Source of the DNA: Callorhinchus milii
Taxonomy: Eukaryota
Direction of reading: 5' to 3'
DNA: 64,000 nucleotides
Assembly (NCBI RefSeq): GCF_018977255.1
Contig: NW_024704742.1
Coordinates: forward strand, 72,976,001-73,040,000
A program made the translations under genes and the position numbers. This document shows positions 5,847-62,777 of this stretch, piece after piece (position 1 is the first letter of the stretch; every line of letters starts with the position of its first letter). A model generated the notes under the pieces. The model was not told the DNA's origin and ran no database searches. It worked only from the letters and a program-made list of their open reading frames with translations.

Positions 5847-5996
5847 CTAGCCTAATTTGATATCACCAGCAAACCAAGTTATCAAGAGTATAAGACTGAA
5901 TCCAGTAAACAGACCAACATTTTGGATAACAAATATTATTATTTCTGATTTTCTTCCAGTTTCTAGTTCTTTACCGAGTTGGTTCATCTCTGGAAA
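5847..5996 (-). CDS. slc39a8: slc39a8 last coding exon: [49 protein letters not shown] (TM8)
   Basis: Acceptor ttttgtttag|TTT CCA GAG ATG; 150 nt to TAG at 5849-5847. Not in the ORF track. Confidence 0.96.
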   Translation of the reverse strand, partial: FPEMNQLGKELETGRKSEIIIFVIQNVGLFTGFSLILLITWFAGDIKLG

Positions 5997-8900
5997 CTAA
6001 ACAAAATAAATATGGCGTTATATTTTCAGAAGAAACCAAAACCATACAGTGCTCTTTTTTTATGGTACCAAAACTTTCTTTATGTTAATAGTATTAAATC
6101 TCTGGTGACAAACATCATAGCACAAATAAATGTGGGCCTGTTCTGTTTAGCGCTGCACTCCACAGAAGATCTGTGCTTTACCAGAAATGCATTACACTCA
6201 GATTCTGGCACTGACTACTTGACTGCCCATGTAAAAAATTGCAGAATTATGGGCTTGTCAGGTCACTAATAAGATCATTTTCTGTGCATTCTGTGCAAAG
6301 GAAACAATATCAGAGGTGCTTTCTGTCCAAATCGTGCATGCAACAACAAGCAGGAAGTGATGTCAGCAGAGACCTGACAACCCAGAAATTGGCCATTTTT
6401 AGTGCTTTCCTTACAACGTGGCCAGTGGACCCAGATGATCCCAATTTAACAAGGATCCCCTATAGTAGGCGAAATCTTGAAGTTCGTATAAAGGGTTTTG
6501 ACAATGGTTCAAGAGGATAAGACTGAATCAAGTAAACAGACCACACAGAATTGTACTGAATGCACAAAATTCATCGCACAGAATAGAAACACATAGATCA
6601 GGAAGGTCTCAGATTCTGTCCCAGATATGTTCACATTCTGAGAAAGGAAAACAGTGGGGATACTGCAATTATGTGGACTGAAGGTACATGAAAGGTTTCC
6701 TGTTCCTGATCACTATCACAGAACCCCGTTGGAAAGTGACTGCTAGCCAGGTAAGATAGCAATGATTAGACAAGCTGGAGCTCTTCAGTCTTAAGAGAAG
6801 ACAATTCAGAGGTGTAAACAATTTAAATGGGATAGAATTAGTAACCCAGAACAATTCTTCAGGATGCACCGAAACACTAGATTAAGAGGTCATAGGTGTT
6901 AGGTTGTAAAGGGCAATTTCAGACCAGATAACAGGAAGTGTTTTTTTACCCAAAGGATAATTAATGCATAGAACAGATTGGCGGGAAGGGTGGTTAAAGT
7001 CTGGAGGTTGGTCTCATTTATTAAATAGCTTGATGCTGCGATGGAAGGACAGGAGAGTGGGTGTTTTGGAGGGATGAGATCAGAATGACCGAAGGGCCTT
7101 CTTCATCCAAACCAATCTTGCAATCTTGTAACAGGATCAGTATTAACTATGGTGCCTCCTGCAATAGTCAATCAATATCTGTGCTATTAACACAAGGGAT
7201 GTGGAATGAAACGGCGCAAACCTTTCCCCAGTGTTCTTTAAACTCTTTTTTAAGCAACTTTTTATAATAAAACAAATGTTTTTGTTCTGTTCAATCAAAT
7301 AATTGTATCTTCTGCCTTCATTGTGTGACTCATTTCAAACAATACATTTTATTATAATTGTTAACAATATTGGAAGTAGCTGGAAATATAAAATTAAAAT
7401 ATACTCAACATTCTACAATATTTCAAGGGGAATAATCTAAGGGGATTCCTCTCATTGATATAATATACTAAAAATGTTACTTTCATGATTCAATCTCCAG
7501 AACCTCAGAACAAAGACTGGAGGCAAGGAGCAGAGAATGATATGACAATGGGGAGAAAATTAAGAGAATAATTGTACACACTTTTTTAAAAAAAGAAACG
7601 AATTGGATGTGAGGGAAGAAACTTTGGAGAACTTTTGCAGTAACATCTGTGTCTTGTCGGTGCTGTATCTGATTTGGAGTGCTACATGCTAACAATTCAT
7701 TTTGCACTTTTGAGAATTAAAACATGTTTATTTAATTTGAAGACATATTTTATACTTCTGAACGATTGCCAGCTAACTAATCAGCACAATTTCTCCTGTT
7801 AGTATCTTACCATATCAGCCAGAGAGATGTACAGGAACATTCCTCCAGCCAGCCCGAAGATGTAGTTTGGAGCAAAGTTGTTTCCTACTACTATGCCTAA
7901 CGTCAAACCGAGGTAACAGGAACACGCTGTCAGAAAGTTGAACGTTAGAGCCTGGGGAATAGTCATACCTGAGTTCAAAAGGATCATAAAATCTCCTAAA
8001 ATAATTAAGGAAAAACATGTTAAACAGTGAACATTTAGGTTAAACAAGACTAACATTTCATTGCAAGCTACTTTCAGTGTGTGCCTTATTACTGATGATA
8101 TGCTTCAGTATGTGTCATCTGTAATCATTCCTCACCTGGGGTCCTCTAATCAACCTTAATATTAATAGTTTTAATTTCTACACTTATTCATATTAAACTC
8201 CGCTTTATCAGGGTTCAACTTGTCTGGTTTGTGTTAATATTTCTAGCTTCTTCTCCACAAAATGTAACATTTCTCTAAACATCCTCCAAAAACAAGGCTC
8301 CCAGTCCCCACCTCTACACCTTTAACGAGTGATAAAGGACCTGGTACAGATCATCGTGGTACTTCAATAGCCTGTTATTCAGCATTGCATAATTAACATA
8401 GGTCTATCTAGCTCAACTTTTCAATTTTTCCTTCAAAACATCTAACACACCCACAAAATATACAATCAATTTATTTTACAGTATATTCTGTGAAGCACTT
8501 TGAAATGTCTCGAAGACACGATAAAGCGCTATATCAAATGCAAGGATTATTATTATTATTATATTTCATTGCCAAATAAAGTGTATCACACTTACCTAAA
8601 AATTCTTTCATACTTTAGTACCTCCCTATCTGGGATCATTTCCTACCCCACTCTTCCGCTCACCCTCTCCATTCATGCCTGCTGCACATCCTTTTCTGTC
8701 TCCGTATCACCATTAATGATCAACTACCAGCTATCAATTACTATGTCCCTAACCTCTGGAACTAACCTCTCTCTGCTTCTCCATCTCTCCCCCCTCTCTA
8801 GTTTAACTCACGTCAAAAAAACAAAATCTTCGATCCCTTCCTCCTGTTGCTGTAATATAATAATGATCTTAATATTTGATACATCAACTTTCATATCAGA

Positions 8901-11900
8901 AGGACATTTCAAAGCACTTCACAGGATATCCTGCAAAGTTTTTTGACTGTGTAATTTGTAGGTGAACACAGCAGCCAATTTGCACACAGCAATGTCTTAC
9001 AAATGGCCATGAAGTGAATGATCAATTTTATTTGGGGGATTGTTGGCCAGGACACCAGGATAAACTCCCTTCTGTTTTAGAGTAGTGCCATGGGATCTTT
9101 AATGTCCATCTGAACAGGCAGCAGGTCCTTGGTTTAACGTCAAATCTGAAGAATGGCACCTTTGACAGTACAGCACACTCCAGCACCTCATTGCAATGTC
9201 AGTCTAGACTGTAAGCTCAAAGTCCCAATGTAGGGTTTGAGCCCACAACTCCTGTTCCTACCATGAGCTACATTTCTAACTTTCATCACCTACAATGCAC
9301 CACGAGTTTTTATACAAATTAGCTCAAAGTTACGACCTAAAATTCTTATTACTTATTTAATATCTTGGAAATTTGTCATGATCAGTGTGCTCTTAACACA
9401 GTCCACAATCTCATTCCCCACCAACTTAATTCTGCTCATCCCGCCCATCTCAAGTTTCCTTACTCCACACGCCTAATAATAATCCCTCCAAAACAAAAAA
9501 CAATAATAAATTGGTCATTTTCAATCCATGACTGTTTGTGGGACATTGCTGTGCGCAATTGGCTGCCGCGTTCGCCCACAAAAATACAGTCAATTCACTT
9601 TACAGTATATTCTGTGAAGCGCTTTGGGACGTCTAGAAGACGTGAAAAGCGCTATATCAAATGCAAGGATTATTATTATTATTATTATCTCTCAGTTCCT
9701 CCATTCTCAGCCTGACCAACACAAGAGCTCTAGAGCTATGACAAGGCTAGCATTTGGTACTGTGCTCTCTTTCCTTTGATTATTCTCGAGCAGCCAAAGG
9801 CAGGGAAATGCCATTGGACTGCAGAGATTCCCCCAACACCCTGGGGACGAGTTGTCAATTCCTGTTTCAAAATGCTTGGTCTCCATACTACCTACAGTAC
9901 CACAATTGAAATCAGGAGCTGACTGTTATTGTTTGGCTCACAAGTGAGTCTTACTTCATCTGTAAGATTGTTTCATGTTACCCACCATCTCCGCGATACC
10001 ATTGGTGAGTGGATGTTCTGGCACTTTGCTCCGCTCTCTGGTACCTTCTTCTGAATCTGTTTGGCTTGCTCTACCCACCCTCATCTCTCTCTCTCTGCTT
10101 TCAAAAGCCATGTAAAATTCTACCTCTTTGACTGAAACTTCAGCCGCCTCTCTCCTCCCCCCATGTCTTCCCTCCAGTCCAGGCATCTGGAAACACTTTA
10201 AGACATCCTCCTATATAAAATGTGCTATATAAGTGCAATGTGTTGTTTATTGTTATAATGATAATAATAATAATCCTTGCATTTGATATAGCGCTTTTCA
10301 CATCTTCTAGACGTCTCAAAGCGCTTCACAGAATATGCTGTAAAGTGAATTGACTGTATATTTGTTCTGGGTTCACCTTGAGGAAGTAAAATGGATTAAA
10401 ACATCTTTTTGAATTCTCTTACCCAGCTCATGAAGAAATTCCTCACACAGTATTGCAATAGACGTGCTGAACCCCTGCGCTATGGATACTGTGAATGAAA
10501 CACCAATGGCAAGGCCGTCAATGAAGTTATGGGTACCGTCACTCAATGTTAACATCCAGGCTAAAGCAGAGATTTCAGATAATTTAGTTCTCCTAAACCA
10601 TGGACTGGATTGCTGTGACTGTGCTTCCTGTAATACAGTAACAGAATGAAGTAAATGATTCACGTTAAACCAGCAGTAAACTTTCTATTCATTTCATCTT
10701 CTTAGCAAAGTTTTGGTAAAAGTTGCTTACAGGCTCACACAGTGATGGAAAACATTAAATGTGTTTTCTATACATCTATGATCACACTGCTATTTCTGAA
10801 AGATGAGAAGCAGTATGAATGAATATACACTCTGGCCACAGCAAACAAACAGTACATAAAACAATTAAGTGTCAACCTGCTCAGCTGATAATAGCACTCT
10901 CGCCTTTGAGTTAGAAGGTTGTTGGTTCAAATCCCACATTGGGGCTTTGAAATCATAGTTTTGAGTTTGAAATGCAAGGATTTTTTTTTATTATTTAATG
11001 CAGTGCTGGGGTGTGTTGCATTGTTGGAGGTGCTGTCCTACGCACGAGGCATTAAACCAAGGGTTCCATCTGCCTGTCCAGGTGGACGTTAAAGATCCCA
11101 TGGCACTATTCGAAAAGAGAAAGGAACTTCTCTTGGTGTCCTGGCCAACAATCCCCCAAATAAAGTTAATTATTCACTTTCATGGCTGTCTGTGGGACAT
11201 TGCTGTGCACAAATCGGTTGCTGTGTTCACCCAAAAAATTGATTTGCCTCCTGTAAAGTGCTCTGAGACTTTGCAATGATGTGACTAGGTGCTTTATCAA
11301 ACCCAAGGATGATAATGATAAATAAAGATCCATATGCAATCTCAGGACTTGCACTTGTGCTTATTGTTATCTGCTCATGCTATAATTACTGTAGAAGTTA
11401 ATGCAGTGCAGTTATTCAGCATACTGTATTTCTTGCAATTTAACAATTATGAGAGCAAGAAACATATCATTGAGATATTGGTCCTGAAATTCCAAAAAGT
11501 CTTAACCTGAAAGACTATTTTGTCTTAAAATTGAAGATTGTATAAATCTGGTACAAAATTCTTCAAGTCAGTCCAATTTGCAGCTGATTCTCTTTTAAAA
11601 AAACAGTGGAAAAGTGGCTCCCAAATTAAGACTAAATTGAAGAATTGTCCACACTTGCATCTTAACGTTCAAAATAATTTTTGGGGGGTCAGCCGGGAGG
11701 GGACAACTGAGTGTGCGTTGGTGTACTGCTGGAGTCTAACCAGCTAAAACCGCATAGCTTGCCACTGTTCAGGACAAAATGGTCTGAACAAGTCAAAACT
11801 GGATGGAATTTGGGACTCATTGTTTACAGATTTCTAATATTCAAATATTATATATTTATCTAGTATATAGATAAAAATCCCCTGCCTAAAAAACATCTGA

Positions 11901-14900: not shown

Positions 14901-17900
14901 TCTCCCTCCTCCCTCTCACCCACCATCACCTCCATGAAACCCAGCACCTGCTGCCTCAACTCCCTCCACACCAACTTGCTGGTCACTCAGCTCCCCCTCC
15001 TCTGCCCACTATTGGCTGATGTCATCAACCAGTCCCTCTCCTCCGGATCAGTCCCTGCCCTCTCAAAACTGCTGTCATCACCCCCCTCCTCAAAAAACCT
15101 TCCCTAGATCCCTCAAACCCCAGCCACTATCGCCCTATTTCTAACCTTTTGAAGCCCTTGTTGGCAATCATCTTCGCGCACACCTCTCCTCCCACTTCCT
15201 CATCGAACCCCTCCAGTCCGGTTTCCGCCCTGCCCACAGTACAGAGACTGCGCTTGTGAAAGTCACAAACGACATCCTCTCTATCTGTGATCAGGGCTCC
15301 CTCTGCCTCCTTGTCCTCCTGGACCTCTCCACCGTGTTCGACACAGTCGATCACGCCATCCTCCTCCACTGCCTTTCCTCCATCATCCACCTCAGTGGGA
15401 CCACACTCGCCTGGTTCGAGTCCTACCTCACAAACCGGCAGCAGTACATCTGCACAAACGGCTTCTCCTCCCACTCTCACCCGGTTACCTGCGGGGATCC
15501 ATCCTTGTCCCCCTCCTCTTTCTGATCTACATGCTCCCTCTTGGGGATGTCATCCGCAGACATGAGGTACATTTCCACATGTATGCGTACGACACCCAAC
15601 TCTATTTTTCCACCTCTCTTTGCGACCCCCAGTCCATTGATGTTCTGTCAGCCTGCCTGTCCGATCTCAGGGCACAAATTTCCTTCAGCTGACAGTTGAC
15701 AAGACGGAAGCCATACTCTTTGGCTCTCGTCAACATCTAAAATCTCACGGTTCCCACCTCCTCTGCCTATCCAACCTCCCCCTAGAACTCTCCGAACCCG
15801 TACGCAACATAGGCATCAGATTCGACCCACAATTATCCTTCCTTTCCCACATCCGGATCCTCATCAGCACTGCTTTCTTCCACCTCCGACACAACACCCG
15901 TCTTAGCCAATACCTCTCTCTGAAACCTTGGTCCATGCCTGTGTCACCTCTCGGCTGGAGTATTCAAACACCCTCCTCACCGGCCTCCTCTCCACTACCA
16001 TTCATAAAATCAAGATTATTCAAAACTCTGCTGCCCGCATTCTCACCCGCACCAAACTCTGCTCCCGGTTACCCCAGTCCTTGCCAGACTGCACTGGCTG
16101 CCTGTCCCAGAGAGGATTGACTTCAAGATCCTCACCCTTGTATTCAAGTCCCTGCACTCCTCCACACCCCCCTACCTCTCTGACCTCCTCTCTCCTCAAG
16201 ACAGTGCCCATTGCCTTCGTTCTTCTGGGTCTGGCCTCCTCCTCATCCCCCGAGTCCTCCGCTCCACCCTCGGCGGCCGTGCGTTCAGCCACTGTGCCCC
16301 GAGGCTCTGGAACTTCCTTCCTCACTCCTTTCACCTCGTCCCCTCTCTTCCTATTTTCAGGTCTCTGCTGAAGACCTTTCTTTTCGACCGCGCCTTTGGT
16401 CACCTTCCTCCCCCTCCCCCTGACTCGGGCCTGGGATCCGTTACTGTGAAGCGCTCTGAGACACCGTCCGGCGTGGAAGGCGCTATATAAATCCAAGTTG
16501 TTGTTGTTGTTGTTGTTGTACTCAAATGCACTCCTCGCTGGTCTCCCCAGCTCCACTATTCAAAAGATCCAATTCATTCAAAACTCTGGCGCCCACGTAT
16601 TGATCTGGACCAAACGCCGTACCCACATCTCACCAGTTCTGGCCAGACTCCACTGATGCCCCATCACCAAATGGATCGACTTCAAGATCCTTACACTCAT
16701 GTTCATATCCCATCACTCCCTGACACCTCCCTACCTCTCCGACCAACCTCCTCAGTCCCCAATCCAACACTCAGCGCCTCCGTGCAACTGGCACCAGCCT
16801 CCTGCTCGTCCCTCGCACCCTCTGCCCCACCATCGGAGGTCACACATTCAGCCACTATACTCTGAAGCTCTGGAACACTCTTACTCAATCCTTCTGCCTT
16901 GCCCCCTCTTCCCCTTTTTTCAAGTCCGCTTGAAAACCTTCCACTTCGATCGTGCTTACGACCACCTCCCACCCTCCCCACCCCCGGCTCGGAGTCAGGA
17001 TCCGCCATTGTTAAGGTTCTGAGTCGCTACCGTTGCATGGAGGGCGCTATATAAGTGGAAGTTGTTGTTGTTATATCACTTGACTATAAACAAAACAAAT
17101 CATCACAATTGATGGCATACAGTTCAGTTGAGGAAACAAGTAAATCAAACAAAACATGTAAAAACTTGTTCAGTGGGCTGTATGGACTGGATAGTCATAT
17201 TTTATTCTAGGTTACATTTTGTTCTTAAATTCATAACAATGTTTCATAACAATGTTTGGGTATTGTTACCTGAGTAGCAATATTGTTTTCATTCCACGAG
17301 TGATTCACTGGACTCTCTAATACTATGGTGTCATTGCCAGGATTAGAAATTATATTTGTCTGGATCACCATCGAAATACCACCATTCTTCTCATGAGAAG
17401 CTTGTTGATCAGGAAGCCTAAAATGACTGTGGTGCTACATGAACAAAGATACAATGAGTAAGAACAGGAGACATGGCAAATAACACTTAATTGGTAAATG
17501 AAGTTTAATATAGGAAAATGCAACAAAATTCACATCCGCAAGAAAATTAAAGAAACCGTTGGAATCTAATAGGAATAGAGGAGCAAAGAGATCTGGGGAT
17601 TCAGATCCACAACTCTCTAAAAGTAGCTACACAGGTAGATAAGGCTATAAAAAGGCCAATGGGATATTGGGCTTTATATCCAATTCTGGTCTCCACACTA
17701 TAAGAAGAATATAGAAGCGATGGAAAGAGTACAGTGTAAGTTTAACAACAACAACAACAACAAGATTCCATTTATAAAGCGCCTTTCACGTCAGGAGGAC
17801 GTCCCAAGGCGCTGCACAGTTGGGTCATGACCCGAGCAGGGGGAAATGGTCAGGGTGAGGGGAGGGGGAGGGAGGGAGCGAGGAGGGGGGAAATGGTCAG

Positions 17901-20900
17901 GGTGAGGGGAGGGAAGGGAGGGGCGAGGAGGGGGAAGAGAGTCGAGAGGGGAGCTGAAGGCTCGGTCAAAGAGAAAGGTTTTGAGACCGGCCTTGAAGGA
18001 GAAAGGGAGGAGGCGGCGAAGGCACTGGGGGATGGAGTTCCAGAGCCTCGGGGCTGAGAGGCTGAAGGCCCGACCACCGATGGTAGGGCGGTTGGGGCGG
18101 GGGACGTGGAGCAGACCGGAGCCAGAGGAACGGAGAGTACGGGCAGGTAGGTAGGGGATGATACCAGGGCTGACAGTTTACTGCTGTCAGAATAGACTGG
18201 GCCTTTTTTCGTTGGAGAAGAGATATGTGAAGGGTGCGAACAGAAATGTTTAAAATTATAAAAGGGTTAACATAAATAGGCTGTTTCGACTGGTTGGGGA
18301 GTCTGCAACAAGAGACACAAATTTAAGATTGCGACCAGAGAATTAAGAGCAATTACTTCACACAGAGAGCGGTGAGACTGTGGAACTCACTGCCTAAAGT
18401 GGTGGTTGAATCAGCTAGTGTATATGCATTCAAGAGGAAGCTAGACCTTCACATGACCGAGAGGGGAATAAAAGAGTATGGGAGGGAGTAACAAATAAAT
18501 GAAGACTTAAGTGGTGTATGTGCACGGACTGGTTGGGCCAAGTGGCCTGTTTCCGTGCTGTATATTCTTTGTAACTTTCTTTACAAGTGTGTGTGGATTT
18601 GGCTACATATACTAGTAAACAAAATCAACTTTGATGTTTGCTTAATGTACGCAGCTAATTAAGAATGTGGGGAAAATGTAATTGTAACAAACCTTTTTTC
18701 TCTATTTCAATCTCATTTTTCTTCAGATTCTGAAACAATTCTATAAGGTACATGTTTCTACTTGTGAGTGAGCCAAAAATGAGAAGGCATATATATAAGT
18801 TTGCTGGTAGTAGATCTAATAATAATAATCCTTGCATTTGATATCGCGCTTTTCACGTCTTCGAGACGTCTCAAAGCACTTCACAGAATATACTGTAAAT
18901 TGAATTCACTGTATGGGCAAAACATGGTAGCCAATTGCGCACAACAGTGTCCCACAAATAGTCGTGGTTTGAAGTGACCAATTTAGGTTTTTTTACCTTG
19001 AGAGATTATTATCAGGCTTGTGGAGTAAGGAAACTTGCCCAACATTTCGCCCTGCTGGGAATCGAACCTACGTCTCTCGCTTGCGAGGCGAGTGCTCTAA
19101 CCACTGAGCTACAGGACTCCATCTAATAGGTAGTTCAGGAGGAATTTCAACACACAGAGGGTGGTCAGAATGTGTTGAACTCACTGCTGGAAGCTGTGGT
19201 TGAAGTAAACAAGCATTAATGTATTTAAGAGAAAACTGGATGCTCACATTGAGGAAGAAGGGCATATAGAGATATTGGAGAAGGGAATAGGAAGGGTGGG
19301 AGCTTATGTGGTATAGAAACATGAGCATGGATTGTTTGGGCTGAATGGCCTGTTTCCGTGCTATATCATTCTATGCATTGTGAAGTGAATGGGTTACTGT
19401 GAGCTATTTTTCTATTTAGTACCTCTCAGTGGTAGTTATCCTCATACCTCTCATGTAATTTTGATATGCATGCATACATAAAAACATTAAATGAAACCTT
19501 TAAATTTCATTAAAGGTACTTATAAGTACACTGCAGCAAATTGGCAACCTATGCCAGTGACACAACATAGTACCTAAGGCAAGAATATCACTACATGGAA
19601 TGGACAGAACAGAGTGAGTGTTGAACGTTCAGTTGAGGGTAACAGTCCCAACCAAGAGATTCTGTCATGAATGCTAGAACTCGCAGTGATGGGTCACAGG
19701 TCTGTGTACCTGTCATTCCTCTCTATTTTCTAAGTGTCATCACCTCATTATAGCAATGCCCAACCTTCTGTTGCGAAAGAGTAAGAAAACAATACAATAC
19801 AAAATTACATTTGTATAGCTCCTTTCAAGTTAAGAGAATGTCCCAAGGCACTGGACAGTCAGGGATTTGGACCCGAGCTGGGGGGCGGTGGGAAAGGAAG
19901 GGTGGAGGGCAGAGAAGATAGGAAGGTGGCCGAAGGCGTGATCAAAGAGGAGGGTCTTGAGACATGCCTTGAAGGAGTCAAGGGAGAGAGCGAGGCAAAG
20001 GGAATGTGGGATGGAATTCCAAAGGGTGGGGGTTCAGAGGTTGAAGGCCTGACCGCCGATGTTGGGGCAGGCCAGGCTGGGCACATGGAGCAAGCCGGAG
20101 CCTGCTGAGCAGAAAAAGCGGACAGGTTAATATGGGAGGCATCAGCATGGAATTAGTGAACATCCAAAGCCAAGGAACACGTGAGAGAAGCAGTCCATTT
20201 TCCAAAGGCCAGAGATGATTGTGAGGAGAGCCATGTATGGTTCTGCATCATACAACACCTCTGCTTTATTTTATAACACTTGGCAATGACCGGCACAGCA
20301 AAGGTTGACATTCTTTTTGTCTTACTTGCTCATCAGGCTGAAGTAATATTTTAAGTATCTTCTCTATGAAGAAAAGGAGATAGAATCCACCAAGCACAAC
20401 CACTGATTTCAAAATATAATCATTGTCTTGGGGCATAAGTCCAAATGCCTAAAAAAAACACAGAGATATTTAGTAGAAGCAGAAGGGAAATGGGCAGACA
20501 TTTGCAAATTATTTAAGTTTGTCCTTATTAGCCATTTTCTTATGGTCTATATTACATATAAAATAGGTCTCATTGTCAAAAGATATGAGAAGTATGCAGT
20601 CATTTGGGAATATATTTAAATATCTCATTATAATTCCACAATAATTAAAAGCAAAAGGATCAACATTTTAAGGCAAAATGGACTAAAGGACAATTTTCGT
20701 GCCTAAACTCCTAAATGAGACTTTTGTGTTAACTTACACTTAAATTCTACCTTTCTCATAGGATGAACATCATGAAGTAATCCACAAAGATGAGGAGCAT
20801 GATGATAATAATAATAATAATAACAACAACAATAATAATAATAATAATAACAATAATAATAGTAGTAGTAGTAGTTTCATTTGATATACTGCCTTTCATG

Positions 20901-21804
20901 TCAGGAAGATATCCCAAAGATCTTCACAGGATTCACTGTAAAGTGTGTATTTTGTGGTGATGACCAGAAAGGAAATTAGGGAAAATTGGAAGGTATTGAC
21001 CAAAGGCATGACAAAAAGATGCATTTTAAGTGGATTTTCATGCTAGAGAGAGAAGTTACAAGACAAAAAGTTTTGGAAGAGACTTTTAGAAAGGAGGCAG
21101 GAACAGGAGTCTCTATATCCTCCTGTAGCTCAGTGGTTAGAGCATTCGCCTCAGCAAGCGAGAGACCTGGGTTCAATTCCCGACCGGGCGAAACATTGGG
21201 CAAGTTTCCTTACTCCACACGCCTCTGTTTACCTAGCAGTAAGTAGGAACCCGGTTGTAAAGCGTTCCTACTTAAAGCGCTCTGAGATGCCGTCCGGCGT
21301 GGAAGGTGCTATATAAATCCAAGTTGTTGTTGTTGTTGTTAGTCGATTGGTGGATCGTTTTTCTGGAGGGAATAATTCCGTAAAAAAAATAATAATAAAT
21401 TGGTCATTCAATCCATGACTGTTTGTGGGATATTGCTGTACTCAATTGGTTGTCGCGTTTCACCCACAAAACATACAGTTAATTCACTTTACAGTATATT
21501 CTGTGAAGCGCTTTGAGACATCTCAAAGATGTGATAAGGTGCTATATCAAATGCAAGGATTATGATTATTATCCCCATTACCCCTATCCAGGCAAATAAT
21601 CGCTAAAAAAGGAGAAAAAGCCAACTTTAACTTTATTTAGTCAGTTTCCTGTTGTCTGGTGTTGAAACCCTATTTTTAAATCCCAAAGCAGTTTTACTTT
21701 GGGATTGTCTTTGACTCTACCATTGTGTTGAGGTCATGGGAGTGGGGGTGAGAGGGGTTTGGGGTAAACATGCGGCCATCGACATCATCATCATCATCAT
21801 CATC

Positions 21805-21857
<53 letters not shown>

Positions 21858-24800
21858 CCTTGCATTTGATATAGTGCTTTTCATGTCGGGAGGACGTCCC
21901 AAAGCACTTCACAGAACACACTGTAAAGTGAATTGACTGTATATTTGTGGGTGAACGCGGCAGCCAGTTGCGCACAGCAATGTCCCACAAACAGTCGTAG
22001 ATTGAAAATGACCAATTTATTATTGTTATGGTTTTTTTTTGGAGGGATTATTATTAGGCGTGTGGAGTAAGGAAACTTGCCCAAGGTTTCACACTGCCTG
22101 GAATTGAACTCAGGTCTCTCGCTTGCAAAGCGAGTGCTCTAATCACTGAGCTACAGGACATGTACTGATTGCTGGGTGAGTTTATGCTGGCAATGGATTA
22201 AGATATGAAATTTGTTTGTTAATGTGTTCCTTGTGGTAATTATCACTAGGGTGTCGAACATCGTAAATTGTAAACATTAGAATTGTGCATGAATATTTAT
22301 TTCTTTGTTTAATAATTTAATATTGGAACCAGCAAAGTGCAACAAACAATCTTTGCCGGCACATTCCCGGATTCCAGAATCCTCAGAGTTCAAATTTATA
22401 AAATGAAACGCATTAAACTAACTCCATAAAGTGCACAACATTTGTGCCCTTGGATAACGGATGCCAAGTAGTTATTTTAATTATAATTATAGAGCACTAA
22501 CAGGGATATTCATAATGCCTACATATAGGAGGAAGGAAATGAGTATTCCCTCAGATTCATTCCTTATGATAATTCTCACTGAATGTTGACCAAATTACGC
22601 TCAGAAGCAGTCAATAGTTATCACTGGGTTCAGAGGTAAATCTCCCCCCTGAAACCAGTGATAATACCGAATGTATTTGACTGTCCAATCATTGCGAGTG
22701 ATGTTATAACATGCTGCATTTTCCACCTCACTATTTTTCCACCACTGAGAGATTAAAGCAGATAAACTGAATGTGGTTCACCAGGAAGAAGCACTAAACA
22801 GTGTCCTTGGGATCTTGTAACGGAAACAATCCTTCCTCTAGATATCAGCCTGGTGCAACTGATAGCACTCTCAGCTCTGAGTCAGAAGGTTGTGAAGTTG
22901 AGCTCTCTTTTGGTACTTTGAGCTAAAAACTGTCTAAATTCCATGGAATTCTCTATCAAGAAAAATGTTGACACTACTGGAATTGGAGTGGGGGGAAACG
23001 TAAGACATGTTTTGTTAAAATACAAATTCTGCAGATCTTTTTTTCTGTTGCAAACATTGCCACATTACTAGAGTAAGATCCTTTACCGTTACTCATTAAA
23101 GGGTAGGATTCATTACAGCATTATTTTCCTATTCAAAGTCCATCTTTTCCAAGGTTTTTATTACTAATATTAATATAGTGCTAATGTACTGTGCCAGGAA
23201 CCATGGTGATGGATTGGGCAGCAAATGATTGGGACCCTGATTAACCATAGAACATAGAATTATACAGCACAGAAGGAGGCCATTCGGCCCATCGTGTCTG
23301 TGCCGGCTCTTTGAAAAGAGCTATCCAAATCAATCCCACTCCTCCGCTCTCTCCCCATAGCCCTGCAAACTTGTCCTCCCCAAATAATTATCTACTTCTC
23401 TCTTAAAAGTTGTTATCAAATCAGCTTCCACCATCCTTTCAGGCAATGCATTCCACATCCGAACAACTCACTGTATGAAAAAATTTCTCCTCCCTTCCCC
23501 TCTGTTTCTTTTAACAACTATGTTTAAGGCACTCATTCTTTCATTTAAGCACCTTGGGACGTCCTCATGACGTGAAAGGCGTTATACAAATGTAATTTTG
23601 ATATTTCAACTATTGCTGCTTTTTGACCTAAATATCTTTAGAGTGGATCTCTCCTCCTCCTTGCATTGTTGCTAGGTTACTGGAGCTGGTTAATCTCACA
23701 AGCTAAGGAATAATAATAATAATAATAATCCTTGCATTTGATATAGCGCTTTTCACGTCGGGAGGACGTCCCAAAGCGCTTCACAGAACACACTGTAAAG
23801 TGAATTGATTGTATATTTGTGGGCGAACGCGGCAGCCAATTGCGCACAGCAATGTCCCACAAACAGTCGTAGATTGAAAATGACCAATTTTATTATTGTT
23901 TATTTTTTGGGGGGGGATTATTATTAGGCGTGTGGAGTAAGGAAACTTGCCCAAGGTTTCGCCCTGCCTGGAATTGAACTCAGGTCTCTCGCTTGTAAAG
24001 TGAGTGCTCTAACCACTGAGCTACAGGACTCCGCAGGTCTCCTGCACATCCCAGCCCGTGATTGTCTCGGTCACTTCCCATTTGCTGGAAGGTTTTAGGG
24101 AAGGTGTATGGGACATTCTTGAAACTGGCAAATTCATATCATAACAGTTATTCTTTCAGAGTGAGGTTTAATATTGATAATTATAAAGTACTAAGTATAG
24201 CATCCAAGAATAGGAAACACAAGTGCTCCATGGATGGGATAGTATATTAAGTTTAATATTCAAGTTACGTTTGACTCAATATTGACACTTGGCTGACCAC
24301 AAAGCAAACATGATGATTATTTGTGAAAAGCGCTAAATTTACCACAAGAACTCAGGGTGACAGACTCTTAATTGAAGAATGTTCTTCATAATGGACGGCA
24401 GCACCGACTGACACAGAAAGCTCCTTACCTCTGGAATAAGTTGTAAAATAGCATTGGAGAAAACTGACCCAATGGCTAGGCCCATAAAGCAGATCATAAC
24501 CTTTGGAAAATATGTTTTTTTGGTGAGAGGAATAAGTGCAACACCAAACAGGGAGGTAAGGTTGATGATAGTGACAGTCAGGAACCCGAAACCCCACACT
24601 GTGAACAGAACAGAATTAAAAAATAATAATTATCCTTGCATTTGACATGGCACTTTATCACATCTTTGAGACATCTCAAAACGCTTCACAGAATATACTG
24701 TAAAGTGAATTGACTATATTTTGTGGGCGAAACGCAGTAGCCAATTGTGCACAGCAGTGTCCCACAAACAGTCGTGGGTTGAGTGCCCAATTTTTTTTAA

Positions 24801-27800
24801 GAGCTTACTACCCCCGGAAAAGCGATCTGCCAATCAAGTAACAACCGGGTTCCTACTTATAATAATAATAATCTTTGCACTTGACATAGCGCTTTTCACG
24901 TCTTCTAGACATTGCAAAGTACTTCACAGATTATACTGTAAAGCGAACTGATTGCATATTTTGTGGGCAAAAAGGGGCAGCCAATTGTGCAGAGCAGTGT
25001 CCCACAAACAGTCGTGCATTGAGTGACCAAATTATTATTGCTTTTTTTTAGGGATTATTATCCCCTGAAAAGCAATCCACCAATCGACTAACAACTAGGT
25101 TCCCACTTACTGCTAAGTAAGCAGAGGTGTGTGGAGTAAGGAAACTTGCCCAATGTTTCGCCCTGCCAGGAGTTGAACCCAGGTCCTCTCGCTTGTGAGG
25201 TGAGTGCTCTAACCACTAAACTACATGACTCTACGAATCAGGACTTTGACAATCCTTTGTCAAATACTAACTGTATTTGGCAAAGGATAACAATAGAAAT
25301 GCAATTTTAAAAGAGACTTTGTAACACGCCTATTTCGGCCCGAGCTGAGATTAGCTAATTTAGTGCAAAACCTTCAATTTTCATTCTGAAATGCAACCTA
25401 ATCTTAGACTCTAAGACTATTTTGTCTTTAAATTTCAGATCATACAGAATGGTGGAAGTTGTTTTAATACAATCTTACTTTGGATACCGTATTCGTGCAG
25501 TTCTTATAAAGAATTGTCTCCCAAATCAAGACTAAAATTAAGGATTTCTGACAAGTCAGCACAATCTAAACGCAACTGATCTAGCAATACAGGCCAGAAT
25601 CCTGTTTATCTTGTTTATTGCTTCCTCACACTGTTTTGACATAGTGAGCAACAAGTTAACTAACGCTCCTAGATCTCTTTCAGCATCCCCAATGGCAAGT
25701 TCTGTCCATTCATGAGCACTTGTGTTTCCTATATGCAGTGCTTTACATTTATTAATATTAAACTTCATTTGTCAGTTATTAGCCCATGGGCAGACCCCTG
25801 AGGCACCCCATTTAGAACTCTTCATATTTTGACCTCGCTCCCCTTCTTCCTTTCCTTCAGCCAATTTTGAATCCACATCCATATATTGCCCTTAATACCT
25901 AGTGACCATTCTGTCAGGAGTAATATCCCAACAATTCACACTAGTATAGATATTTGCCTAGAAAATAGTCATTGCACTCTACAGTAAATAATGTTAGTGC
26001 TTTGAAATGTTTTGAAGATGTGATAATAACCCTCAAGAAAAAAAACAATAATAAATTGGTCACTTCAATCCACGACTGTTTGTGGGACATTGCTGTGCGC
26101 AATTGGCTGCCGCGTTTTGCCCACAAATATACAGTTAATTCACTTTACAGTATATTCTGTGAAGCGCTTTGAGACGTCTAGAAGACGTGATAAGGCGCTA
26201 TATCAAATGCAAGAATTATTATTATTATTATTATAAGGCCCTATAAGCGCCTTGGGACGTCCTCCCGACATGAAAGGCGCTTTATAAATGGAATCTTGTT
26301 GTTGTATATCAAATGTAAGAATTATTATTATTAATTATTACGATAGTTGAGTATTACTGCGATTGGCACGAGAAGCTCGGACCATTTAGACTCATGTGGA
26401 CTAGTTGGGCCAAATGGTCTGTTTCTATGCTGTTGAGATCTATGTGTGGAGAATTACATTACTACTGGTGGTCAGGCCACTTTCTGATGCTAACATCTTG
26501 CTTTTGATCTTTACAGTAATACTGCATTTTCAGCTCACTTGTGGGCCAATTTGCTACTCACACAATACTGCACCTCAGTATCTACCTGGTCATTTTGGCT
26601 GAAGTCCATTTTGATTGTTATCAGCGAGCTTTTACTTCACATCAGAATCAAAACAATCAAGTTTACTCACTTACGCTCTTAAAAGAAATGGTTGCAGTAC
26701 TAAGATGAAGCGTGCAGGGGCATGTTTTACCTTCGGTGGCAGATGGCTTTTTCTTTACTGTCTCACTTGAGATGCGTGAAGACTCAACCACTGTTTTCTG
26801 TAGAATAGTATTGTAGATATTTCTCCAATCTTTGGGCAACACTTGATTTGAGGCATTCTGCTCCCTCAGGTGTAATGTTTTTGCAGAGGACAAGCACTGC
26901 AACACAAAAGGAAAAACTGCAATAACTTACACAGCAAATACAGAACTTGAGTGGTACAGATACTGCAGACTGAGGAAAGAATAAAGCCCCATAAATAATA
27001 CAGTATTTTGTTCCTCTGTATTACTGTCCAGTTCACATTGATCAAACTTGTGCCCAGGTTATCCTCAATCTATGCAGTAAGTAACACTTTGTGTAATATA
27101 TCTAGGATATAGAATACTCAGGGCTTCACAGTATCATTAGTTCTTACATCAGTAATCTGCTCTAATTAGAAGTAGTTTACAATTTTTTTTTTACAAAGTT
27201 TAGCCCTGCCAGCCTTTCCTCATGATATAGAATCCTAAAGTTTGGAGTCATCTTTGTCACCTTCCTTTGGACACTTGCCAGCAGTACTGAGGAAGTGCTG
27301 CATTGTCGGTAGTGCGGTCCTTCGTTCACCTATAGATTTACAGTCACTACTCTTTCCAGAAATGCTACAAAGTACTTTGAGACGTTCTCAATTAAATAGG
27401 TACAATATCAAGTGCAATGATCATTATCCTTCATTCTGGAAAAACACTAGGAAAAACTAATATATTGTATCACTAAAATAAGTGAAATATTGGATTCTTC
27501 TTTGCCTAGCATATACCCTTTCCAATTAACTGTACCAACCTTACAGTGCCATGAATTGTTACCTGTTTCTGGATATTTGCTTTAGTATTGACTAACCTTT
27601 GCATTTCCTTACCTTTATCCGTGATTTTATGATGTCCTCCAATGCGTCTGCATCTGTTTTTTGCACATTGACAATTCCCAATTTATCCAGTAGTTTGTGG
27701 TGTTGCTTTGCAGTGAGTGTTTCATCGTTACCATATTGGTTAAGGATGTCCTCAACGAATGCCTTTGGAGCAACATTTTGACTGAGCACAGAGTTAATGA

Positions 27801-27831
27801 ATAATATACTGTAAGCAGCTAAGGCAAACAT
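5847..27831 (-). CDS. slc39a8: Metal cation symporter ZIP8 (SLC39A8), complete spliced CDS: join of complement(27613..27831, 26731..26896, 24429..24598, 20326..20448, 17270..17434, 10423..10627, 7811..7995, 5847..5996), 460 aa
   Basis: Eight exons of 219/166/170/123/165/205/185/150 nt sum to 1383 nt with consistent phases, GT-AG boundaries and no internal stop. LIV-1 ZIP motifs HNFIDG, CEEFx[20 protein letters not shown] and IQNxG are present. GNNFAPN and the C-terminus are ZIP8-like rather than ZIP14-like. The gene is divergently adjacent to nfkb1, as in human 4q24. Confidence 0.95.
6690..7130 (+). mobile_element. Old CR1 3' fragment
   Basis: Degenerate CR1 C-terminal coding region and 3' UTR (agaggtcatag, gaagggccttcttcatc). 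Confidence 0.6.
7811..7995 (-). CDS. slc39a8: slc39a8 coding exon 7: [11 protein letters not shown]...[11 protein letters not shown] (TM6-TM7)
   Basis: Acceptor ttttag|GA and donor ATG|GTAAGA; 185 nt. Confidence 0.97.
8855..9270 (-). mobile_element. Deu-domain (SacSINE1-like) SINE
   Basis: Reverse complement of ttaaagatcccatggcacta...ggtgtcctggccaaca...gctgtgtgcaaattggctgc. Confidence 0.75.
9450..9688 (+). mobile_element. tRNA-Ala SINE, 5'-truncated
   Basis: caagtttccttactccacacgcc followed by the Deu-like body and (tta)n tail. Confidence 0.88.
10423..10627 (-). CDS. slc39a8: slc39a8 coding exon 6: EAQSQQ...[10 protein letters not shown]...CEEFLHELG (TM4-TM5 metal site)
   Basis: Acceptor tattacag|GAA and donor CTGG|GTAAGA; 205 nt. 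Confidence 0.97.
10870..11320 (+). mobile_element. Deu-domain (SacSINE1-like) SINE, near full length
   Basis: tRNA-like head (gcactctcgcc..gag..agaaggttg..ggttcaa) and Deu core caggtggacgttaaagatcccatggcacta. Confidence 0.8.
11479..11819. mobile_element. Old non-autonomous DNA element with short TIRs; internal motif shared with 25400-25545 and 58187-58317
   Basis: tggtcctgaaattcca / tggaatttgggactca ends; shared motif aagactattttgtcttaaaat. Confidence 0.5.
11940..17072 (+). mobile_element. Nested L2 LINEs: outer, internally deleted L2 (11940-13635 plus 16519-17072) containing an inner L2 spanning most of ORF2 (13636-16519)
   Basis: APE motifs (LTETW, GGGVA, IMGDFN, LDLVIT), RT motifs and two separate (ttg)n tails. 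The outer element reads ...SRL before the insert and resumes [10 protein letters not shown] after it. Confidence 0.9.
17270..17434 (-). CDS. slc39a8: slc39a8 coding exon 5: [11 protein letters not shown]...NIATQ (cytosolic His-containing loop)
   Basis: Acceptor ttcatgtag|CAC and donor CAG|GTAACA; 165 nt, open, phase 0/0; begins with an HxHF motif. Not in the ORF track. Confidence 0.9.
17470..18575 (+). mobile_element. CR1 3' fragment split by an L2 insertion
   Basis: CR1 coding similarity 17470-17743 and 18158-18575, ending ggccaagtggcctgtttccgtgctgta. Confidence 0.8.
17744..18157 (-). mobile_element. Young L2 3' end, same subfamily as 873-2775
   Basis: Near-identical to 873-1230, with a (caa)n tail and an internal tandem duplication. 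Confidence 0.92.
18818..19120 (-). mobile_element. tRNA-Ala SINE, full length, short form
   Basis: Head ...ctgagctacaggactcc, body and (taa)n tail. Confidence 0.9.
19125..19375 (+). mobile_element. CR1 3' UTR fragment
   Basis: cacacagagggtggtcagaa...gggctgaatggcctgtttccgtgcta. Confidence 0.75.
19790..20130 (-). mobile_element. L2 3' fragment
   Basis: Tail aaaattacatttgtatag..ctttca..tcccaaggc.ctggacag and L2 C-terminal coding remnant. Confidence 0.85.
20326..20448 (-). CDS. slc39a8: slc39a8 coding exon 4: [41 protein letters not shown] (TM3)
   Basis: Acceptor tttttttag|GCA and donor CAA|GTAAGA; 123 nt; [10 protein letters not shown] motif. Not in the supplied ORF track. Confidence 0.95.
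20802..20874. repeat. Compound (TAA)/(CAA)/(TAG) microsatellite derived from a SINE tail
   Basis: Visible repeat followed by a minus-strand SINE tail remnant to about 20960. Confidence 0.9.
21118..21570 (+). mobile_element. tRNA SINE, long form, with an L2 tail inserted at about 21259-21337
   Basis: Head, central ctctgtttacctagcagtaagtaggaacccgg segment, Deu-like body and tail. Confidence 0.9.
21783..22159 (-). mobile_element. Young tRNA-Ala SINE (short form) with an expanded (ATC)n(ATA)n tail
   Basis: Near-identical to 23709-24032 and 30427-30745. Confidence 0.92.
23246..23530 (-). mobile_element. CR1 3' end
   Basis: catagaacatagaa...cagcacagaaggaggccattcggcccatcg. Confidence 0.85.
23709..24032 (-). 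mobile_element. Young tRNA-Ala SINE (short form), full length
   Basis: Complete head, body and tail. Confidence 0.93.
24429..24598 (-). CDS. slc39a8: slc39a8 coding exon 3: [19 protein letters not shown]...NAILQLIPE (TM1-TM2)
   Basis: Acceptor ttcacag|TG and donor GAG|GTAAGG; 170 nt; strong ZIP8/14 TM1-2 similarity. Confidence 0.96.
24622..25233 (-). mobile_element. Two tandem long-form tRNA SINEs (24622-24858 truncated; 24859-25233 complete)
   Basis: Body and tail occur twice, with one head at 25130-25233. Confidence 0.88.
25560..25910 (-). mobile_element. Old CR1 RT fragment
   Basis: [30 protein letters not shown]. Confidence 0.75.
26020..26305 (+). mobile_element. SINE body and tail (26020-26235) followed by an L2 tail (26245-26305)
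   Basis: Deu-like body, (tta)n, then gcgccttgggacgtcctcccgac..(ttg)n. Confidence 0.85.
26731..26896 (-). CDS. slc39a8: slc39a8 coding exon 2: [10 protein letters not shown]...KKKPSATE (ectodomain)
   Basis: Acceptor ttttgtgttgcag|TGC and donor GAAG|GTAAAA; 166 nt, phase 0 to 1. It begins CL and ends PSxxE like the ZIP8/14 ectodomain exon. Confidence 0.85.
27613..27831 (-). CDS. slc39a8: slc39a8 coding exon 1: [34 protein letters not shown]...KSRIK (signal peptide plus ectodomain)
   Basis: ATG at 27831 is followed by a hydrophobic leader, and the donor is AAG|GTAAGG. The coding part is 219 nt, the size recalled for human. A likely acceptor (tgtgtttag|) lies 14 nt upstream of the ATG (exon start about 27845), implying an unlocated non-coding first exon. 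Confidence 0.88.
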
Positions 27832-28554
27832 TGCACAAACGACTTCTAAACACAGCAGTGAAGAGACCAACAAAATTTCATTCACACAGAAACTCACTCA
27901 AACACAACAGTGTAATCCAATTGAGCATAACCTGAAGCACTGCCAAGTCAATAGAAAAACAGTTCCTTTTAACTACAGGACGAACAAAATTCTATTCTCC
28001 AGCTTCACTCTTCTTCATTCTTTTAGAAGTAAAAACTATCTTATGCAACTTCAGTTAAATACTTCTCTCAGTTTTATTGGTTTCCTCCTCTCAGATTTGA
28101 TGAAAACTGACCATGACAGATTTACACCTGTAATAAAATGGAGCAAAGGACAAGTTGGTAAAAAAATTAAGCTGCTTTGTAATCCTTTACCTGTGTTGAA
28201 CATTGAGATTGGAATGGATAGTGGAAAGAATTATCAGTGGAAAAACTAGCAAGCATCAGCATAAGCATAGGCTAGGTGGACTCAATAGCCTCCTGTGTTA
28301 TAATTTTCGATTGCATTCTGTGATTGTGGGATGACATTGAATGAAGTCCAACATCTCCTCTGTCGAAATGCAGTAATCGACGATGCAGAGCAAAGTAATC
28401 CCAAGAGCTCAGCCTTCCCCCTGCCTCTCCAATGCTTTTTGTGTCAGGGTCTGCACTTGCATCCTATACTTTACAATAAATCCAGTGAAGCGTTTTGAGA
28501 CACTTCAATGAGATAATAAGATGTAATATCAAATACAAAGGTTATTATTACTAT

Positions 28555-47860: not shown

Positions 47861-48068
47861 CACAGCGAAGTGTAGTGACTGTGTATTGTGCCGGCGAAAC
47901 GTTCCGGCACTTCAGCGAAGGAGGGGTTAACATTGTGGGCGCAAGTGGAGTTAACACGGGGGGGGGGGAGGGGTGTGTGTGGGGGGAGGGGGAAGGGGGG
48001 AGGGGGGGAGGCGTGTGCTATGTGGCTAAGTGGCCGCTTGGGGCGCTCTGGGAGCGGGGTAGGCGGTG

Positions 48069-48078
48069 GGGAAATTCC
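48069..48078 (+). promoter_or_regulatory. NF-kappaB binding site GGGAAATTCC
   Basis: Exact match to GGGRNNYYCC inside the CpG island; NFKB1 autoregulation is established in mammals. Confidence 0.65.
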
Positions 48079-60800: not shown

Positions 60801-62777
60801 TTTGATGGTATGAGAATATGAGAATGAGAAGTCTCTTGACTTTGATCACACTCTCACGTTAGTGCCTGCTATAAGTTTGTTACCCTGTCTGGCTTTAGAT
60901 AATAGCCCATGATTTATCTGATTGAGATTTCCTTTGAAAGTAGTAGAAACATTTAAAAATGTCATTTTATGTCTACAGCTTCTATTTCCCCGTATCTGAA
61001 TTTCTATCCCCCGCACCCCCATTTTCTCTTCTCCAGAAGACCGTAGACTAATTTTTCTAATTTGACTTTGACTAAGACTTTGACTAATTTTCCTTCTATT
61101 GGGGTATGGTTTCATGGGTCCTGAGCATGCAATAATACCTTGCCATGCGGCCAACATTTGATAGTGAGTCTTGACGTTGAGTCTTCATGTTGAGTGTTGT
61201 CAGACTGTCAGACTATGGGAAGATCACAGCTAAGCTCAGCATCCACATACACACACTTTCCAGCTGGGAGCTCCAGAGCAGTGACAACTCTGGCAGATGT
61301 CCCCCTCTCTTAACTAAAAGGAATTTGCTGCCCGGACTGAGATCAGCTTTCCAGTATGTACGATCAAGTGCTGCATTGTGAGGTGCCTTTTACCCATGAG
61401 CACATCGGATGACATTTATAAAAGTTTTGTAAATAAATCTGGTTGTTGTGAGGTGGCCTGTACACAGTTCACTGCAGTATTTTATCAATACTTGCAATTG
61501 CTAGGATTAGCTTTCACTACCATCATTCCTAGCATTGCTGTTTGAAGACAAAGAATATCAATATTTGATTACAAAGCAATATAAAAACACTGTTATCTTC
61601 TGCTCTTTCCTCTCCTGCTTTCTAGAACTCCATCCTAGAGTCCCTTAACTCACTCGCTCCCTCCCCTCTTTAAGGTCCGTCTCAAATGTACCTCTTTGAT
61701 CATCTTTTGCTCCTCACTCCCCTCAGCTCCCATCATTAGCTCGGGTGTCCATCCAGTGCTGTGAATTCATCTTGGGACATCCTCTCTACGTGAAAGGCGC
61801 TGTATATATGTAAATTGTATTGTATTGACAATAAATTGTGTGATTTTAATGGGAAAAATCTAATATACAACAAGATTACATTTGTATAGAGCCTTTCACG
61901 TCGGGAGGACATCCCAAGGCGTTGATATAAATTTATTCACAAGTGGAAATCACAGCAAAGCTGGTTTAATCCTCGCCCAAAGTCCACATGTACTTTCCAA
62001 CGTGTTGCAGGATAAGGATCAGGAGCGAGAATCTGGGATAATTTTCTTCTCTCTATTCTGGAGCACTGAGGATAAGTTTAGCACCCTTACTGCCACTCTA
62101 ACTGAGATCAACTATCTCCTTACAGTCTTATGTATTAAACCTAGGGTTCCCAGTCCAAGTGTGTTAGTTGCTCACTTGATCAATGTCCATCCTTTCGTGA
62201 AAATGTTGTCTGTACATGTAAATCATGTATTTCTTTGGTTTATCTGGGTATTTGGCAATGGATATTGCTGTATGCAAATTAGTTGCCAGTTTCACCTTCA
62301 AAATACACAGTCACTACACTTTCTACACATTATAGTATGTCCCGTGAAGCTCTTTGAAACATCCTTCTGACATGAAAGACACAATATCAATTGTAAGGAT
62401 TATTATCACTTCTGGTCTTTTATTCAACTTAAGAACTACTGTTAACTACTGCGACGTCCTCCCAATGTGAAAGGCACTATACAAATGTAATTTTGTTGTT
62501 GTTGTTCACTATCTTCTGATCAGCAAATTGAATTTGACCAAGTCCAAAACGTTTTTTTGGTCTTAAAGCCTGCGAGGCTAGTAGTGTTTTCAATGGTGGG
62601 GAGAATGTAGTTGGTAATCTTCAGCTAAATTTCCAGTATTTACTCAATATTTTAATTATTGACAGTATTGACAATTGGTTTTTTAATATGCATTTTGTTG
62701 TATAAAGGTGTAATCATTTCTGTATCTTTCTTCCAGCTGATGGACCTTATCTTCAGATCGTAGAACAGCCCAAACAG
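57792..62777 (+). CDS. nfkb1: Nuclear factor NF-kappa-B p105 subunit, 5' partial CDS: join(57792..57821, 59179..59254, 62737..62777) = MAEDDTYQLR MFNMDNYSAGMFNSPIGPTDPPLQT PDGPYLQIVEQPKQ; continues beyond the window
   Basis: MAEDD start and DGPYLQIxEQPKQ (start of the Rel homology domain) are diagnostic. Phases are consistent (0, 1, 0), introns are GT-AG, and synteny with slc39a8 agrees. Confidence 0.93.
58187..58317. repeat. Inverted repeat with ~34-nt arms (MITE-like)
   Basis: taacctgcaggaccattttgtcttaaaatgtaag pairs with cttagattttaaaataaaattgtcttgcaggcta. Confidence 0.75.
59179..59254 (+). CDS. nfkb1: nfkb1 second coding exon: MFNMDNYSAGMFNSPIGPTDPPLQT
   Basis: Acceptor tccttcctgtag|ATG and donor ACGC|GTAAGT; 76 nt, phase 0 to 1. 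It resembles the human MFHLD...IFNP exon as recalled. Confidence 0.88.
60045..60295 (-). mobile_element. L2 3' fragment
   Basis: (caa)n tail, gggaggacgtcccaaggcgct, and RPTIGGWAF remnant. Confidence 0.85.
61660..61922. mobile_element. Two L2 3' tails, tail to tail
   Basis: Plus-strand tail ending at about 61825 and minus-strand tail at 61868-61922. Confidence 0.7.
62737..62777 (+). CDS. nfkb1: nfkb1 third coding exon: (P)DGPYLQIVEQPKQ
   Basis: Acceptor ctttcttccag|CT and donor CAG|GTAAGC; 41 nt; start of the Rel homology domain. Confidence 0.95.

Follow-up and report, generated by a model that had tools for sequence, protein, structure and literature searches.

The chimaera Callorhinchus milii carries a slc39a8 gene whose product, ZIP8, an importer of manganese and zinc, has lost the clasp of its ectodomain (C101, P102, and C113) together with the proline of the TM5 metal motif, a regression that is real, focal, and fixed-looking. 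It is a variant of a single gene in one species, known from sequence alone. The window, i.e., the whole 64-kb stretch of DNA analyzed, contains the gene as eight coding exons on the minus strand, from 27831 to 5847, with an open frame (Table 1). All introns are GT-AG, and the joined exons give the exact translation of XP_007890061.1 (P0001, 460 aa) plus a stop; the exon 3 translation is 100% identical to this C. milii protein, which is named ZIP8. A second C. milii ZIP8 record, UniRef V9KLR1, has the same full chain with the sole difference T59R, which corresponds to a SNP at 27656 present in DNA runs X2 and X4. V9KLR1 belongs to an accession series that we take to be derived from assembled transcripts, and the use of the slc39a8 exons in RNA is likely. 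The C. milii genome paper reports deposited transcripts in a passage that makes no tie to V9KLR1 (PMC3964593). Four presumed RNA runs mapped to 7900-27850 gave repeat matches and, among the rows listed, no exon junction, which is neutral as to exon use. In the four DNA runs three coding SNPs were seen in exons 1 and 2, two of the three being amino-acid-changing. The reference allele lacks the first ectodomain sequon, which a SNP at 27726 in run X2 restores by changing D36 to N.

Table 1. Features of slc39a8 and its neighbor in the 64-kb window.
Feature	Position	Strand	Remarks
slc39a8 coding exon 1	27613..27831	-	aa 1-73: signal-peptide-like start and first ectodomain helix pair
D36	27724..27726	-	Column of the Asn in a conserved N-x-S/T sequon (N in 77/91 homologues)
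slc39a8 coding exon 2	26731..26896	-	aa 74-128: cysteine-flanked core/PAL-motif helix; regressed module
C74	26894..26896	-	Last remaining ectodomain Cys; partner of C113 in predicted human ZIP8 (bioRxiv 2025.08.09.669477)
Y101-N102 replacing C101-P102	26810..26815	-	Intermolecular disulfide Cys and PAL proline
S113 replacing C113	26777..26779	-	Same residue as in human disease variant C113S
slc39a8 coding exon 3	24429..24598	-	TM1-TM2; Q181 = human selectivity residue Q180, kept
slc39a8 coding exon 4	20326..20448	-	TM3
slc39a8 coding exon 5	17270..17434	-	Cytoplasmic His-containing loop; lineage-specific words in common with the sawshark model
slc39a8 coding exon 6	10423..10627	-	TM4-TM5; D311, H314, N315, D318, E343, E344, H347, E348 kept
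L346 (CTT) replacing the EEXPHEXGD proline	10433..10435	-	Matches human ZIP14 P379L in both column and residue
slc39a8 coding exon 7	7811..7995	-	TM6-TM7
slc39a8 coding exon 8	5847..5996	-	TM8, stop
NF-kB p105/p50-like 41-bp exon	62737..62777	+	AG/GT-bounded; head to head with slc39a8, pointing away

The losses in the ectodomain are located in exon 2. An earlier note on this DNA had read the minus-strand segment 26896..26774 as encoding C74-LSSAK...WRNI-Y101 ... R114, and the codons agree (C74 TGC, Y101 TAC, N102 AAT, S113 TCA, R114 CGC); the exon extends past 26774 to 26731, with AG and GT ends. The note had also seen a single Cys in the segment and the loss of both the CPA motif and the downstream Cys. 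C74 is indeed the sole Cys before residue 165, and C101, P102, and C113 are kept in 141 of the 142 non-gap rows of a ZIP8/ZIP14 alignment (144 rows, 2 partial), the lone exception, P0025, being a model with an unrelated N-terminus. Human residue numbers are taken from papers and are the same as those of C. milii over 74-114 and 311-352. No Cys lies at 113 or 114, as had been stated, but the CGC codon at 114 is not the counterpart of C113, whose column is occupied by S113, with a TCA codon that needs at least two changes to become TGY. Half of the motif is kept, as T103-I104-L105-Q106 are the commonest ZIP14 residues at these positions.

In a wider count the C-P...C pattern is present in 167 of 173 vertebrate records, among which are close relatives, so that the rows are not independent. 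The six records without it are both C. milii entries, two partial models, a model whose N-terminus is unrelated, and a catfish isoform in which the segment is missing. That most fish ZIP8 proteins might lack the motif can be set aside, since 28 of 30 keep it, the exceptions being the catfish isoform and an arowana duplicate in which only the Pro is lost. The view that a sequencing error is not involved was also upheld: the contigs of all four DNA runs, which come from one study, carry the same codons, no other letter being listed for them, with one silent difference, at 26744, as the exon-2 variation among them. An alternative CPA-containing exon was found nowhere in the 64-kb window, in which the six frames contain no C-P-[ATSG]-hydrophobic-hydrophobic string and a search with an exon-2 profile returned no second copy of the exon (best E 0.27).

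The changes in the ectodomain go beyond the clasp itself. H44, T80, Q86, T108, and S113 stand at positions where at least 90% of homologues have a hydrophobic residue, R84 replaces H/Y/F/L, and the large aromatics W97 and Y101 occur at these positions in 0 of 91 homologues. The mean hydropathy of the dimer helix is -0.77 vs. +0.39 to +0.79 in four comparators, and a weak Pfam EF-hand_Zip match, present in five of five full-length comparators, is absent. The residues kept are F25, G34, L39, L48, C74, I100, I104, L105, and Q106; among them, I104 represents the critical V104 position, which is thus kept as Ile. Of 24 representatives with a CP-like motif, 4, Ciona-type homologues among them, lack the C113 cysteine, which indicates that the bond it forms can be dispensable. 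Cysteines are found in C. milii ZIP8 only at positions 74, 165, 342, 374, and 376, and the near-invariant Cys of the cytoplasmic loop of homologues (C289) is gone.

The naming of the gene as ZIP8 in the earlier note was confirmed by phylogeny. In a tree of 31 rows with tunicate-type outgroups, the C. milii protein falls within ZIP8 with a support of 100/99, with a sawshark model as its sister (99/97); the ZIP8 grouping was obtained again in a 19-row tree (100/98). These trees supersede a preliminary one without outgroups, which had a branch of 1.5. Identity as ZIP14 was considered and dropped, the clade with ZIP14 being rejected in the 19-row tree (p-AU 0.00275). The Pfam Zip domain PF02535 scores 198 bits against a cut-off of 35.1, and the best structural match of the predicted model is BbZIP 7z6m (Z 10.4, rmsd 4.2, 179 aligned). 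The LIV-1 subgroup II features missing from the C. milii protein are the Pro of the TM5 EEXPHEXGD motif, the Cys before the PAL-like motif, and the C74-C113 pair.

The exon at 62737-62777 best matches 1svc p50 (E 0.0028), and p52 chains match it too. In human, NFKB1 presumably adjoins SLC39A8, and the NF-kB-like exon fits such a neighborhood; the synteny is consistent with this arrangement but not decisive. A CpG island spans 47500-48300 (obs/exp up to 1.04); within it, GGGAAATTCC at 48069 matches the kappa-B consensus, and the plus strand has a candidate splice donor near 48295. Situated 20 kb upstream of the point where slc39a8 translation starts, the segment 47500-48300 probably holds the NF-kB gene's promoter and first exon. 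Decayed LINE-like reverse-transcriptase fragments, together with short repeats of very high copy number that end in (ATT)n, are present at 12000-17000, at 43900-45500, and in many introns; they swamp read mapping.

The second lesion lies in TM5, where the metal motif of C. milii reads CEEF-L-HE, with the acidic and His ligands kept and the Pro lost. Pro occupies column 346 in 143 of 143 aligned homologues and the corresponding place in all 134 representatives with the TM5 motif (147 examined, 13 without the motif). The human ZIP14 motif contains E376, E377, and H380 (bioRxiv 2025.08.09.669477), which puts ZIP14 P379 in the column of C. milii L346. The P379L allele was homozygous in one child with hypermanganesemia (PMC9886663, PMC6517356, PMC7246657); a literature search for functional data on the TM5 proline returned none. 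The metal ligands D311, H314, N315, D318, E343, E344, H347, E348, and D351 are all kept. From the selectivity residues Q180, E343, C310, and N357 (PMC10372143), three are kept in C. milii (Q181, E343, and N357), and position 310 is Ser, as in most homologues. C. milii ZIP8 differs in 14 of 134 near-invariant alignment columns, and its changes outside exon 2 cluster in TM4-5 (A302, L307, T313, V324, and L346).

The distribution of divergence along the protein was assessed with segment profiles built from 50 tetrapod rows, 41 fish and frog rows being held out for comparison. For exon 2 the score is 6.5 bits vs. a held-out minimum of 24.9 (n = 41), and TM4-5 scores 113.6 vs. a minimum of 114.9 (n = 41), with the tunicate outgroup at 122.0. 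Exon 1, TM1-2, TM3, and TM6-8 remain in range, scores as low being obtained for 15, 2, 1, and 17 of the 41 held-out rows, respectively. A generally runaway gene had been considered and was dropped after the tree and the segment profiles, as exon 2 is hit and the membrane domain largely stays within the held-out range; the equally long-branched ZIP8 proteins of lungfish, barb, and frog keep C-P-C and Pro346. Conserved columns are changed more often in the ectodomain (10/20) than in the membrane domain (28/183; Fisher p 8e-4). Within the membrane domain, changes affect 11 of 118 near-invariant vs. 41 of 72 variable columns (p 1e-12), a sparing which implies that purifying selection has acted. 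The overall divergence is not extreme, because the tetrapod-invariant columns that differ, 14 of 140 in the membrane domain (held-out median 9, maximum 17) and 5 of 12 in the ectodomain (median 3, maximum 5), are within the held-out range. In a relative-rate test vs. sawshark, the chimaera has about twice as many unique membrane changes, with p < 0.05 for only 1 of 8 outgroups. The proteins and genome of C. milii have been reported as the slowest-evolving among vertebrates (PMC3964593).

Structure prediction from a 92-row alignment, which replaced an earlier model from 12 rows (mean pLDDT 59.5), gave a mean pLDDT of 65 and a pTM of 0.47, with one continuous helix at 94-115. The ectodomain helices of the model (22-33, 41-50, 77-85, and 94-115) have block pLDDT values of 52-83, the fold being driven by an alignment of canonical homologues. 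A homodimer prediction for aa 18-128, made without an alignment, gave no verdict (score 0.01), the fold being uncertain. Foldseek returned no match at E <= 0.001, a sequence search found no solved eukaryotic ZIP, and ZIP4-ECD was not among the matches listed in a wide structure search, which barely tested the ectodomain. In the ESM Atlas the best score for the ectodomain was 0.84 (FAM180), with ZIP4 at rank 12, which is at chance level; the sawshark model returned only Zip clusters.

The picture in other cartilaginous fishes depends on a single protein. The ZIP8-like model of the sawshark Pristiophorus japonicus (UniRef100_UPI00398EDC96, P0152; 321 aa, labeled 'LOW QUALITY PROTEIN') is the only other chondrichthyan ZIP8 found among the matches listed, of which 22 of 150 representatives, this model included, were followed to names or source records. 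It starts at exon 4, lacking exons 1-3, is 66% identical to C. milii ZIP8, and keeps Pro346; the missing part may reflect faulty annotation. The best 120 of 1189 matches at E 0.001 include no elasmobranch ZIP8 and no second C. milii ZIP8. The sawshark model shares 45 five-letter words with C. milii ZIP8 (median of the listed matches 40) and, over aa 186-460, reaches 353 bits vs. at most 329 for 119 listed matches, so that a full-length shark ZIP8 of like divergence would be expected among the matches listed, and none is there. When the sawshark loop region was used as the query, 16 proteins and no further chondrichthyan were retrieved; since this word-index search also missed C. milii P0001 itself, the absences are weak and the missing shark ZIP8 is a lead. 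Several ZIP14 models, including that of the great white shark (P0029 and others), have both alternative TM1-2 exons strung together, which suggests that the mutually exclusive pair is as old as sharks and means that the search scores of these models are inflated.

Published work helps to gauge what the lost residues do. The ZIP14 ectodomain has an interchain disulfide made by the Cys preceding PAL, its Cys-to-Ser mutant still elutes as a dimer, and its dimer helix is bent by the PAL Pro (PMC4915132); removal of the ectodomain leaves ZIP4 dimeric (PMC9727157). Loss of dimerization in C. milii is thus not implied. The natively disulfide-free ectodomain proposed in the earlier note likewise does not follow, as C74 is kept. 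The C74-C113 and C101-C101 bonds of ZIP8 are AlphaFold predictions (bioRxiv 2025.08.09.669477; PMC12439942), and the dimer role of the ZIP8 ectodomain has been described as needing validation (PMC13671036). C113S is a human SLC39A8 disease allele (SLC39A8-CDG). The activity of human ZIP8 is 23% for C113S, 72% for P102A, none for V104G, about 10% for H84L, and about 30% upon deletion of the ectodomain, the losses arising mostly via expression and trafficking (PMC13671036). These values indicate that transport can proceed without the clasp, though at a cost, in keeping with a C. milii protein that is weakened but still works. Mice lacking Zip8 in the whole body die as embryos (PMC7246657). A literature search, from which subscription journals were largely missing, found nothing on a lost clasp in chondrichthyan ZIP8.

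The best explanation, to which we give an even chance, is that the intact C. milii slc39a8 encodes a protein which, having lost the clasp and the TM5 Pro, would act as a weaker metal importer without a covalent dimer link, selection on ZIP8 having probably relaxed in cartilaginous fishes. As the human and bat studies suggest, the absence of C101 would abolish the interchain disulfide and that of C113 the C74-C113 bond. Without P102 the kink of the dimer helix would be lost, in line with the straight helix 94-115 in the model of modest confidence, and the polar H44, T80, R84, Q86, and T108 in place of hydrophobic residues may turn the ectodomain into a loosely packed helical spacer. A dimer, if formed, would be held by the retained I104-L105 face and by the membrane domain. 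TM5 would become stiffer at the metal sites through Pro346Leu, with transport lowered or retuned, and ZIP14 might cover the function and thereby allow decay, which is the weakest step. The earlier note had listed relaxed selection, neofunctionalization, and a compensated deviation; the losses on which it built are real and specific, but it made no choice among the three. Two observations overlooked there, the TM5 Pro-to-Leu change and the truncation of the shark orthologue, favor relaxed selection. Against this explanation count the frame, intact over eight exons, which would fit full function equally, the unexceptional overall divergence, the Pro346 kept in the sawshark, and the fact that ZIP14 P379L comes from one patient.

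A fully compensated transporter, with Pro346Leu offset and the ectodomain repacked, either with Y101 and W97 in the dimer core or with C74 pairing across the dimer, seems unlikely. The intact frame and splice sites, the retention of the metal ligands, of Q181, E343, and N357, and of I104-L105-Q106 and C74, the two aromatics found in no homologue, and the dimeric state of the ZIP14 Cys-to-Ser ectodomain (PMC4915132) would all suit it, yet it has to accommodate five formerly hydrophobic positions that are now polar, R84, a hydrophilic dimer helix, and damage to two separate conserved modules. Quite unlikely is a changed function under selection, such as another metal preference, an intracellular compartment, or a role as a non-transporting partner or sensor. 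The clustering of substitutions in exon 2 and TM4-5 with the other segments ordinary, a TM4-5 score below that of the tunicate outgroup, and the slow evolution reported for the genome (PMC3964593) point that way, whereas the TM4-5 margin to the held-out rows is about 1 bit, no new motif has been gained, and partial loss of constraint would produce the same clustering.

There is only a slim chance that the gene is non-functional, all constraint having been lost recently with a stop or frameshift still to come. Its two matches to human disease alleles, the polymorphic sequon loss at D36, the two non-silent SNPs among three, and the truncated shark model would agree with a dead gene; N102 (AAT) and S113 (TCA), however, are each at least two base changes away, which suggests old losses, and still all eight exons are open and canonical, the conservation bias of the membrane domain is strong, and the full chain recurs in a second database record, V9KLR1. 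Least probable by far is an artefact or a wrong gene, be it an assembly error, a wrong exon, a divergent ZIP14, or an extra paralogue beside a canonical ZIP8. TILQ and KPSATE do resemble ZIP14, but the agreement of four of four DNA runs, the lack of an alternative exon in the window, the ZIP8 clade with ZIP14 placement rejected, the adjacent NF-kB p50-like exon, and the lack of a second C. milii ZIP8 among the best 120 of 1189 matches all speak against such an error.

Whether weakened, as preferred here, or compensated, a wild orthologue without both ectodomain disulfides (predicted as C74-C113 and C101-C101) and both signature prolines offers a natural test of the clasp and the TM5 kink in trafficking and transport. 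If chimaera ZIP8 works, exchanging parts between it and human ZIP8 would reveal where suppressors of C113S (SLC39A8-CDG) and P379L (SLC39A14 hypermanganesemia) lie; if it fails and the gene is missing from sharks, cartilaginous fishes handle manganese differently from the mammalian model. A more sweeping reading, which we regard as doubtful, is that ZIP8 is being dismantled across cartilaginous fishes, sharks and rays having lost it or kept a truncated form and the chimaera having a clasp-less one, with the equivalents of two human manganese-disease alleles. Were it true, a whole vertebrate class would handle manganese without a working form of a transporter that mouse embryos cannot survive without, and chimaera ZIP8 would be a natural map of compensation for C113S and TM5 Pro-to-Leu.

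Compared with known systems, C. milii ZIP8 is an orthologue of the other vertebrate ZIP8 proteins (SLC39A8, LIV-1 subgroup II), 48-56% identical to them, with the same Pfam Zip domain, Glu-type TM5 motif, and ligands, but lacks C101, P102, C113, the H/Y84 aromatic, the first sequon (in the reference allele), and Pro346. S113 and L346 match human ZIP8 C113S and ZIP14 P379L in both column and new residue, although the chimaera changes occur in a wild vertebrate and in a background about 50% diverged. In the arowana Scleropages formosus, the ZIP8-like duplicate XP_018585390.1 (P0153), which has HNFADG in TM4, has likewise lost the PAL proline; unlike the C. milii protein, it retains the TM5 proline as well as all three cysteines, and a second ZIP8 (P0083) with C-P-x-x intact is present. 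ZIP7 and ZIP13 (LIV-1 subgroup IV), described as having a degenerate PAL (PMC4915132), are also LIV-1 transporters without a canonical PAL-centered ectodomain, but they are separate ancient paralogues, whereas the loss in C. milii is secondary and within the ZIP8 orthogroup. In the regression of CPALL described for prion proteins (PMC5874730), an intron-flanked module with a cysteine-flanked core has also had its Cys and PAL replaced; prion proteins keep the intrachain disulfide and have lost the transporter, while C. milii keeps the transporter and has lost the intrachain bond as well. Motif loss is thus already known from prion proteins and from ZIP7 and ZIP13.
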